Of a DNA stretch of 59,077 nucleotides, positions 42,001 to 45,000 are shown in pieces; the stretch's first letter is position 1; the number at the start of each line of letters is the position of its first letter. Origin of the DNA: a virus (lineage: Duplodnaviria; Heunggongvirae; Uroviricota; Caudoviricetes); the IMG/VR virus record IMGVR_UViG_2690316267_000014. One strand, given 5' to 3'. The position numbers were made by a program.

Positions 42001-45000
42001 TCGCGTAATTCGTTTTTTTCAATTTTAAAGTAATGCTTTCCGGGCATGAATCGCGTCGTGTTGTTCAGAAAGTTATCAGAAATGTTTTTGATTTTTGTTC
42101 CGTAAAGGTGAGCCAACAGTTCAGTAGTAATTACGGGGATCTGGTTATAGGTAACAGGGGAAAGGTTTTCGACAGAAATTTGAACAGCCATAATGACCTC
42201 GCGTTTCGATAATTTTTACCTCGCCACCGTCAGGTGCTAATCATCGTGGTGGCGAACTGTGCGGGGTTAGCACTACCGGTCGAAACATCCGGCGAGCCTT
42301 TCGGCTCCCCCACACAGCCCGCCATAAATCGCGAATGTGACTGTGCTTAGCGCATAAAAAAACCGCCAGCGCGGTTATGCACCGTTTCGATATCCGGGGT
42401 GCTAATCCCGACGCCAGGTCTTGCTGGCGCGTGAGGAATATAGCCCCGAACACGCGACGTTGTCAAACTGATGGCATTGCAGATCCCTACGCAATGTAAC
42501 ACTATGTGTTATACATTAATAACGGAACAAAAAATGCGCATTTTTAAAAACGCCTGGTTTGAGCGATTTGCACGCAAAACAAAATATCCGACCAATCACT
42601 GCGCGAAATTGTTAAACAGGCTGATAACGGGCTTATCTCAGCAAACCTGGGTAACGGCGTTATCAAGCAACGTCTGCCACGAGTCGGTGGCGGCAAATCT
42701 GGCGGTTATCGCACAATCATTTTCTATCGCGTCGGCACAAGGGCCTTTTTCGTATATGCATACGCAAAAAATGAACGTGAAAATATAACCGCTACTGCGG
42801 AAAGTGCATTTCGGAAGGCGGCTCCTCACGTACTCAATCTAACAGATGAACAACTGGCACAACTGATTCTACAGGGTCAGTTTACGGAGGTACCCAATGA
42901 GTAAAAATTACCGCAGTGATGCGCTTGCATCCGTACATGAAATGATGGAATCGCTTCATGATATCGGCGCAGTAACGAAACAGACTATGCGAGAATTCGA
43001 TGAAACTTGTCTCCAGCCAGCGCCGGTAATGTCTCCGGAAAGGATCCGTGCACTGCGCGAACGAGAGCATCTGTCTCAACCTGTTTTTGCCAGATACCTC
43101 AACGTCAGTAAAAACCTGATATCAGACTGGGAACGTGGTGTAAAACGGCCGGGAGGTGCCGCTCTTCGCCTTCTTTCAGTCGTAGAGAAAAACGGGATCC
43201 AGGTAATATCATGATACTCCAATACAACAAAACCCGCCGAAGCGGGTTTTCATTAGAAGCACCTTTAGTTTTGCTGTTCTATTTTAAGCTTGATAGTTTC
43301 ATACAAAACAATAGTTGCGCCTGTTTTACATAATTCCCGGCTGTCATACGCACGAGACCAATAACACAACCAGTTCTCGAGATCTTCTCGAGTATAGGTT
43401 TTGCAGGCCAGTCCCTCTGCCATTTCCACGATTTCATCGCCTGGTGCTGTTAACTCATAGCCATTCAACAACAAGAAGACATAACCAGCCATCATAGCTG
43501 TTCGTTTGTTTGCATTAGCAAATGGATGATTCTGAATCAGACTTTCAATCAATACTGATGCCAGTACAAACATGTCATTAGTCTGTTCATACCATCGAAC
43601 CATGCTGGGACGAGACTGAGAAGAACTTAAATTATCAACACTCAGCACACTAACAGGTTCATCTGGTGTTTGAAGCTCAATTAAAAGGCGATTAATTTCG
43701 GTAAGATCATCAAACGAAAGGTAGTGCACTCCTTCAACAATCTCAGCCATAGAGCACAATACCCATCATTACACTTTTGAAAGTTCTTCCATTGCCTTCT
43801 CGTAACGAGAAAAACCGAAATCGAAAGCATTTTTCACCTGCTCACGATGAGTGCAATTTTCATCGATAGCCGGGCGCGGAGCTGCCACAACGCTTTTATC
43901 GCGAGGGGGAATAGTCAATCGCGGGTGTTTTTTTAGTGCGTAGCTCATTGGGTGTACCCTTACTTCTCCGTCCTGTTCTTTAACAAAAATCAAGTCAATA
44001 CAAAATTAGTCAGGCTAATGTTGTTAGCATAGCCTAATACCAATCGTATTCACAACCACAGTAAGTGAAAAAACCCGCCGAAGCGGGTTAAGTGCGGGTG
44101 CGTTGAGGATGCCTGACACATCAGAGGTGGCGAGGGATTTCTCCCTCGCCTGGTCTCTTACTCCTCAGGTTCGTAAGCTGTGAAGACAGCAACCTCCGTC
44201 TGACCGGTTCGGATTCGTACCTCGCAGAGGTCTTTCCTCGTTACCAGTGCCGTCACTACGACGGTAATACAGATGACGATCAGGGCGACTAACATCGCCT
44301 TTTGCTGCTTCATAGCCTGCTTCTCCTTGCCTTTCGGCGCGTAAGAGGCTAACCTACATGTGTCTAGCATGAAATTGGCCTCAGATTAATGTTAGGCGTC
44401 TTGCAGGACGCGTAATGTTAACTGGGGCTTTTCTCTGTCTGCCTTACGGTGGCATGCCCGAGGCAGACAGCCTCAAGCACCCGCAGCAATTCTACTTAAC
44501 TCTCGCTTTACCGCAAACCGTTTTTACCCGATATGGGAATTCCCATATCGTAATGAATTCAGTTCCCTAGTCGATCCATCAAAAACACAACCAGGCAGTA
44601 AACGCCCACAACAGCAATAACAGCCAGCGCACCTTCCATTGCCAGTGATATATCATCCGACATATTCCCTCCTTTGGTGTTAATCCCGGCGAACGTTTTT
44701 ACCCCCACCGACAAATAACATATACTAAAAAGGTGATAGCCATAGCAACGCCTGTAATTGCAAATGCTTCAGGCCAGTTCATTGGCGCACCTCCTGCGGC
44801 GGTTCTGGTAGCGGCATCCAGTCGGTTACATTGCGGCTCTGTGTTTCGAAAAATTCATCACCATCACGGACTACATCAAAAAACTCACCGTCTCGATATT
44901 GCGCATAAAGAACGAATGCGCCATCACATAAAATAATTACGTGCTGACCGTCATCCGGCATTCGCTCACTACAGCTTATCCAACCATCCAGAGTTACCGG

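Follow-up and report, generated by a model that had tools for sequence, protein, structure and literature searches.

Toxin and antitoxin genes at the locus

The stretch of DNA analysed here (the window; 59,077 nucleotides, IMG/VR virus record IMGVR_UViG_2690316267_000014, Caudoviricetes) is an Escherichia coli lambdoid prophage that is 99.9% identical to, and collinear over 29 kb with, the stx-negative, 933W/phi24B-like prophage of strain ML35. Within the nin region of this prophage we characterized a toxin–antitoxin (TA) module in which a HigB2-type toxin gene is split between two reading frames and is followed by an intact gene for a HigA2-like antitoxin with a helix-turn-helix (HTH) domain. 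The initial annotation of the window had offered, as one of two readings, a RelE/HigB-like toxin that was inactivated while its HTH antitoxin was kept, a reading that is supported by the Pfam matches, the comparison with intact alleles, and the population data presented below. The features of the module, numbered by position in the window, are as follows.

42497-42511, plus strand: perfect 6-3-6 palindrome TAACAC-TAT-GTGTTA, 23 nt upstream of the toxin ATG
42534-42904, plus strand: probable pseudogene of a HigB2-type (Pfam PF06296) toxin, in which the ATG frame covers codons 1-15 and the -1 frame holds codons 16-123 together with the stop
42576-42579, plus strand: A4 tract, site of a 1-bp deletion (the ancestral A5 gives ...FARK-N-KISD..., by alignment with intact alleles)
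42786-42788, plus strand: premature TAA that ends the 84-aa out-of-frame product, 108 nt before the antitoxin start codon
42886-42890, plus strand: GGAGG Shine-Dalgarno sequence, 6 nt upstream of the antitoxin ATG, read directly from the sequence
42897-43214, plus strand: intact HigA2-like antitoxin of 105 aa with a C-terminal HTH domain (Pfam HTH_3, E 1e-7, and HTH_31)

We translated the region in each of the three forward frames. From the ATG at 42534-42536, translation yields MRIFKNAWFERFARK and then non-toxin sequence up to the TAA at 42786-42788, so that the product has 84 aa, 15 of them native residues. An ATG at 42471, upstream in the same frame, extends this to the 105-aa open reading frame (ORF) that the initial annotation had cited as frame 0. 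The frame of 42536 (+2, equivalent to -1) reads ...KISDQSLREIV...GGGKSGGYRTIIFYRVGTRAFFVYAYAK...TEVPNE, with the translated stretches ...KISDQSLREIVKQADNGL...GGGKSGGYRTIIFYRVGTRAFFVYAYAKNE...TEVPNE, and contains 108 toxin codons before a TAA stop at 42902-42904. This stop overlaps the antitoxin ATG at 42897, and the toxin gene is upstream in the operon order. We found no ATG, GTG, or TTG in the C-terminal frame from 42563 to 42904. The switch point between frames lies inside cgcAAAAcAAAAtat, which includes A4 tracts at 42576-42579 and 42581-42584. These translations agree in all coordinates with the earlier claim of a toxin N-terminus in frame 0, a C-terminus open only in frame +2, and an overlap with the antitoxin start.

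Toxin frames were compared with Pfam PF06296 ("RelE", a family that includes HigB2) at a score cutoff of 27 bits. With one A restored to the first A4 tract, the gene encodes a 123-aa protein, which matched model positions 1-120 of 120 (154.2 bits, E 2.1e-45), and this full-length match settles membership in PF06296. The C-terminal frame alone matched model positions 15-120 (123.9 bits, E 5.4e-36), whereas the frame-0 product matched positions 1-34 only and, at 20.5 bits, fell under the cutoff. Frame 0 had no full-length family match, and toxin homology was found in frame +2, so that neither of the two outcomes that would have refuted the initial annotation was seen. The split of the toxin match between two frames is far beyond chance.

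The closest solved structure to the toxin was Vibrio cholerae HigB-2 (E 0.005, phmmer). Mutagenesis has shown that R51, R64, Y82, and K84 are needed for the activity of this protein (VcHigB2; PMC5416850), and in the phmmer alignment to 5JA9/5JA8 these residues stood opposite R47, R60, Y77, and K79 of the window toxin (repaired numbering), all of which are encoded in the downstream frame. A recent survey described PF06296 proteins as ribosome-dependent mRNases encoded in toxin-then-antitoxin order (PMC11980606), an order that holds in the window module. However, a working PF06296 gene is one uninterrupted ORF, and the 1-bp deletion at 42576-42579 splits the window gene; because it is divided between two frames, we filed it as a pseudogene of PF06296 and not as a working member. 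No NCBIfam model matched the toxin, and no PADLOC defence-system model did so either, which leaves no evidence of a catalogued anti-phage system. In PHROGs, the toxin belongs to phrog_5869 and the antitoxin to phrog_2104, both families of unknown function.

The antitoxin is open throughout, and its residues 45-99 matched residues 39-93 of V. cholerae HigA-2 (5JAA_A, E 7.9e-8). HigA2-type antitoxins bind and neutralise their toxin through a disordered N-terminal segment; in the window antitoxin, approximately 44 residues precede the HTH domain, as in VcHigA2, with no detectable sequence similarity to VcHigA2 in that segment. The antitoxin protein was identical (WP_000042397.1) in all loci with an inactivated toxin. 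Its Shine-Dalgarno sequence would permit translation without coupling to the toxin. Upstream of the toxin, the palindrome was the only block conserved with a sister allele whose upstream DNA is otherwise unrelated; it was found by comparative alignment and was missed by an inverted-repeat finder. A conserved palindrome is expected as the operator of an autoregulating HTH antitoxin. The palindrome at 42497-42511 is thus a candidate operator for the window antitoxin, and it overlaps a possible extended -10 element. Apart from two single-nucleotide polymorphisms (SNPs; 42491 and 42500), the upstream region was the same as in the intact alleles.

Ancestral state and spread of the deletion

Intact alleles of the toxin reveal the nature of the lesion. 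E. coli HCP4S3_I4 has an allele ~98% identical to that in the window which reads CGCAAAAACAAAATA, with five As (A5), and forms an uninterrupted 372-nt coding sequence. A5 was also present in five further genomes with intact toxins; the intact alleles named as carriers of AAAAA were those of HCP4S3_I4, 2013C-3033, SCU-104, and JNEC-KY171/203. Since the intact, 98%-identical allele has A5 and the window has A4 at 42576-42579, the window lesion is a 1-bp deletion, and the initial annotation had correctly placed a 1-bp indel in the A-tract. In-frame homologs contradict the possibility that A4 is the ancestral, general state of the family.

Two intact gene pairs served for comparison. The HCP4S3_I4 pair (WP_077168034.1 and WP_000042397.1) and the sister pair of O157, O145, and O26 prophages (WP_001217944.1 and WP_000042395.1) occupy the same type of lambdoid nin locus next to hokD, and both share the stop/start overlap ATGAGTAA with the window module. 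The HCP4S3_I4 antitoxin is identical to that of the window and the sister antitoxin differs by one V/I residue, whereas the sister toxin has only 77% DNA identity to the window toxin. Intact-allele toxins are single 372-nt ORFs, from which the window copy differs by the loss of one A and by the substitution E89A. In the intact-allele comparison, made on ungapped sequences, toxin pN/pS was ~0.1 (0.072/0.754; only the ratio is quoted, as synonymous sites are saturated between the two toxin families, pS 0.75), and antitoxin omega was 0.01. Constraint on the intact alleles indicates that the intact gene is functional and that the frameshifted gene departs from that regime.

The deletion is widespread. 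A 71-nt probe across the site matched exactly in nine complete genomes (ML35, FORC_029/043/069, NCCP15648/13905/13983, TOE17, and cM8a) and, at equal length but with a single SNP, in 18 O104:H4-type genomes. AST198, PS2Canimalfeces12, LZHX12, and NMBU-W12E19 have the deletion as well, which brings the count to ~30 complete E. coli genomes, the O104:H4 outbreak clone among them. The same deletion occurs in phage PhiR12_3 from ECOR13. In a collection of 15 billion proteins, the exact 84-aa frame-0 product occurred on 188 contigs and its O104:H4 variant on 210, alongside at least ~1,170 contigs with intact 123-aa forms of the same cluster.

Some lineages showed further damage. In both O104:H4 and AST198 another single base is missing, at 42819, and 23CRST047 has kept A5 and lost single bases at 42801 and 42819. 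In NMBU-W12E19 (O10:H32; L007 1658-3071), the toxin gene was frameshifted before an IS66-family element inserted into it, and the remainder of the toxin and the antitoxin were absent from the fetched stretch. Across 169 complete genomes with the sister allele family, a G4 run was intact in 113, and a +G insertion split the gene in ~55, among them E. coli GE3 (L005 2538-2910); the antitoxin is again intact. The independent +G insertion in the sister allele indicates that toxin loss recurs.

The E89A substitution (repaired numbering; window position 42798, GCG versus GAG) replaces a Glu found in six out of six intact alleles compared. It is common to the window, ML35, FORC_069, PS2C12, and LZHX12 and is not in O104:H4. 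Positions 42595 and 42798 together show all four gametes, a pattern that suggests recombination or repeated mutation inside the 370-bp gene.

Interpretation of the split toxin gene

Taken from the sequence comparisons, the most probable reading by a wide measure is that the window carries a decayed type II HigBA2-type module, with a PF06296 toxin first and an HTH antitoxin second, in which the toxin is a pseudogene and the antitoxin has been retained. The sequence itself shows that one A was lost from the A5 homopolymer at codons 15-16, so that ribosomes starting at ATG 42534 make the 84-aa product with its 15 native residues, ending at 42786-42788. The catalytic part, with R47, R60, Y77, and K79, is still encoded but out of frame. 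As the catalytic frame has no ATG, GTG, or TTG, presumably no active toxin is made from the window allele. The antitoxin is probably still made and probably still represses its own promoter, because its strong Shine-Dalgarno sequence, the shared promoter region, and the conserved upstream palindrome are all retained. By the standard explanation, loss of a toxin is harmless or beneficial, but loss of the antitoxin first would be lethal. Due to this asymmetry, modules decay toxin-first and leave an apparently orphan antitoxin.

Several observations weigh against this reading. All four catalytic residues are still encoded, which suggests that the pseudogene is young and could be reverted by a single +1 insertion. 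RefSeq, annotated by the Prokaryotic Genome Annotation Pipeline (PGAP), makes no pseudogene call and instead gives a 112-aa toxin starting from ATT 42566. Additionally, the inactivated copies had five nonsynonymous and two synonymous changes in the toxin compared with zero and three in the antitoxin; this contrast goes in the direction expected of decay, but it involves few events and is not significant (Fisher p = 0.17).

A very improbable alternative, raised in the initial annotation as a slippery site, is that full-length toxin is supplied at a low, regulated dose, either by programmed -1 ribosomal frameshifting or by slippage during transcription, at one of the A tracts (A AAA at 42581-42584 or AAA-A at 42576-42579). 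The required shift is indeed -1, and tRNA-Lys on AAA 42582-42584 could re-pair perfectly with AAA 42581-42583 to give ...FARKTK-ISDQ... at native length. The downstream frame is also still open, with its catalytic residues kept. However, the zero frame reads gca cgc aaa aca aaa tat ccg, which offers only single-codon A AAA re-pairing and contains no X XXY YYZ heptamer. The 80 nt that follow (42585-42664) have a minimum free energy of -14.1 kcal/mol versus a shuffle mean of -15.5 (z = +0.5), indicating no stimulatory fold, and there is no GGAGG-like Shine-Dalgarno stimulator upstream of the site. Known transcriptional slippage tracts are far longer than A4 runs. Comparative evidence is also unfavourable, as the intact alleles and both close and distant homologs are single in-frame ORFs, and the homopolymer became shorter through the deletion (A5 to A4), not longer. 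Lineages with the deletion have since gained second frameshifts and nonsynonymous changes downstream, including E89A in the window. The slippery-site proposal thus finds no support, given an in-frame ancestral A5, the missing heptamer and stimulatory structure, and the second frameshifts of descendant lineages.

We attach similarly little probability to the idea that the A5/A4 tract is a contingency (phase-variation) locus that switches the toxin reversibly on and off. In its favour, the lesions are homopolymer indels: A5 to A4, AAA to AA, and, for the sister allele, G4 to G5. The A deletion is found on at least two SNP backgrounds, and the four gametes at 42595/42798 could mean recurrence. 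Recombination among lambdoid prophages explains the four gametes equally well, however. Tracts must be much longer than 4-5 nt to switch at a useful rate. No switching was seen within a lineage, as the 18 O104:H4-type genomes and every FORC and NCCP genome were in one state, and secondary lesions make the off state irreversible in several lineages.

It is also highly unlikely that the window encodes a functional, N-terminally truncated toxin of 112 aa starting at ATT 42566 (WP_226867305.1), as annotated in RefSeq. PGAP calls this start in ML35, FORC_069, and others, and the segment covers PF06296 model positions 15-120. However, ATT is a very rare initiator, and no Shine-Dalgarno sequence lies ahead of 42566. 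The start is located inside the translated frame-0 ORF, and its product lacks the first 14 conserved model positions. The start was apparently picked to fit protein homology, and the same pipeline gives "toxins" of 68, 85, 98, and 104 aa for other broken copies. PGAP "RelE/ParE family toxins" that come from broken copies include WP_226867305.1, WP_228355587.1, WP_286338887.1, and WP_249859764.1 (annotated lengths of 112, 68, 98, and 104 aa in different strains). The 112-aa protein is most readily understood as a broken gene annotated on the strength of homology. Least credible of all is a homopolymer sequencing or assembly error in the window. The break does lie where such errors are commonest, but the same state in ~30 complete genomes from many laboratories and platforms, one phage genome, and ~400 contigs excludes an artefact and marks the lesion as real and inherited.

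One tentative and rather unlikely possibility is that the HigA2-like antitoxin has been kept by selection, and not by chance, after repeated toxin loss (at least five independent lesions in two allele families) and acts as an immunity or anti-addiction factor. In that case, it would protect the lysogen or prophage from near-identical HigB2-type toxins of other lambdoid phages, including Shiga toxin (Stx) phages, and toxin-minus, antitoxin-plus alleles would be adaptive when prophages compete. Cross-neutralisation of incoming HigB2-type toxins by the window antitoxin is plausible because of its near-identity (one V/I residue) to the sister antitoxin. After toxin loss the antitoxin shows no nonsynonymous changes, although events are few and the time since loss may be short. 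None of the O104:H4, FORC, and NCCP genomes was among 60 evenly sampled of the 169 sister-allele genomes, so co-residence seems uncommon, and nothing suggests that the antitoxin now has a homologous toxin in the same genome as its partner.

The genes are already in RefSeq, and a frameshifted toxin beside a retained antitoxin is an ordinary, known phenomenon; beyond annotation quality, its importance is little. For annotation, it shows that an improbable ATT start can hide a frameshifted toxin in RefSeq/PGAP, so that inventories of E. coli TA systems, including those of O104:H4, would count an inactive module as active. The module also illustrates cleanly, and with good sampling, how a prophage TA system decays toxin-first, and it could be used to test cross-protection by an orphan antitoxin against phage-borne toxins.

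Prophage context and known parallels

The TA module is accessory cargo of a stx-negative, 933W/phi24B-like lambdoid E. coli prophage, to which Stx-converting phages are related. It lies between an antirepressor region on one flank and, on the other, a Doc toxin with a small gene upstream of it, together with hokD/sok.

41526-42191, minus strand: ORF6N/P22AR antirepressor gene, flanking the TA module on one side
42245-42329, minus strand: C4 antisense RNA (Rfam, 75 bits)
42356-42430, minus strand: isrK Hfq-binding small RNA (Rfam, 70 bits)
42466-42437, minus strand: near-consensus promoter TTGACA-18-TATATT (simple sigma-70 scan)
43229-43250: hairpin rich in G+C and flanked on each side by A/T runs, in the gap where the antitoxin and Doc genes converge
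43265-43750/43759, minus strand: Doc-family toxin, convergent with the antitoxin (TIGR01550, E 1e-35)
43769-43948: small gene upstream of Doc, function unassigned (phrog_2208)
44158-44313, minus strand: hokD
44308-44482, minus strand: sok RNA (117 bits)

The C4 and isrK RNAs are situated between the antirepressor gene and the toxin promoter region. The minus-strand promoter at 42466-42437 presumably serves isrK, C4, and the antirepressor, and the whole region looks like the antirepressor control module of P1 immI or of Gifsy isrK type, divergent from the TA operon. In the simple sigma-70 scan no plus-strand promoter turned up ahead of the toxin, the strong minus-strand promoter being the only hit, and the TA promoter is an inferred one. 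ML35 has an additional ~1.7 kb with two antirepressor genes (Ant and a KilAC-domain protein; L017 18208-19979) that is missing from the window at 40849-40898.

On the other flank, the hairpin is a probable bidirectional terminator, and the product of 43769-43948 may be a Phd-like antitoxin of Doc. Three TA-type modules (the HigBA2-like pair, the Doc cassette, and hokD/sok) thus lie within ~2 kb, and a tblastn search of the window revealed no further copy of either the toxin or the antitoxin. HCP4S3_I4, the only genome found with both the WP_000042397.1 antitoxin and an intact toxin, does not have the Doc cassette (window 43265-43948), and its hokD directly follows the antitoxin. The toxin was inactivated in every sequenced locus where the Doc cassette adjoins the module, which simple linkage could explain.

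Among characterized systems, the closest likeness is to HigB2/HigA2 of V. cholerae (PDB 5JA8, 5JAA; Hadzi et al. 2017, PMC5416850), which has the same Pfam family (PF06296), the same toxin-first order, and four catalytic residues that align with those of the window toxin. V. cholerae HigA2 has an HTH domain homologous to that of the window antitoxin, and in both proteins an N-terminal segment (~44 residues in the window antitoxin) lies ahead of it. Unlike V. cholerae HigB2, the window toxin, to which similarity is low (E 0.005), is borne by a prophage in E. coli, frameshifted, and presumably inactive.

Searches on PF06296, on HigB2 in E. coli prophages, and on prophage orphan antitoxins returned no paper on this E. 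coli prophage module, and the nearest parallels to its decay come from other families. Decayed TA systems with a retained antitoxin have been described for Shigella flexneri yacB (a frameshift), a Caulobacter parE pseudogene, and Klebsiella orphan antitoxins (reviewed in PMC7354431). Like these cases, the window antitoxin is open beside a toxin lost by frameshift, and the proposed meanings are a remnant, a regulator, or an anti-addiction factor. Unlike them, the window toxin belongs to a different family, and the available genomes document both its population frequency and several independent lesions. Anti-addiction by a chromosomal antitoxin has been described for Erwinia chrysanthemi CcdA against CcdB of the F plasmid (cited in PMC7354431). 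Like Erwinia CcdA, the window antitoxin, which presumably has no active partner, could neutralise a near-identical incoming toxin.

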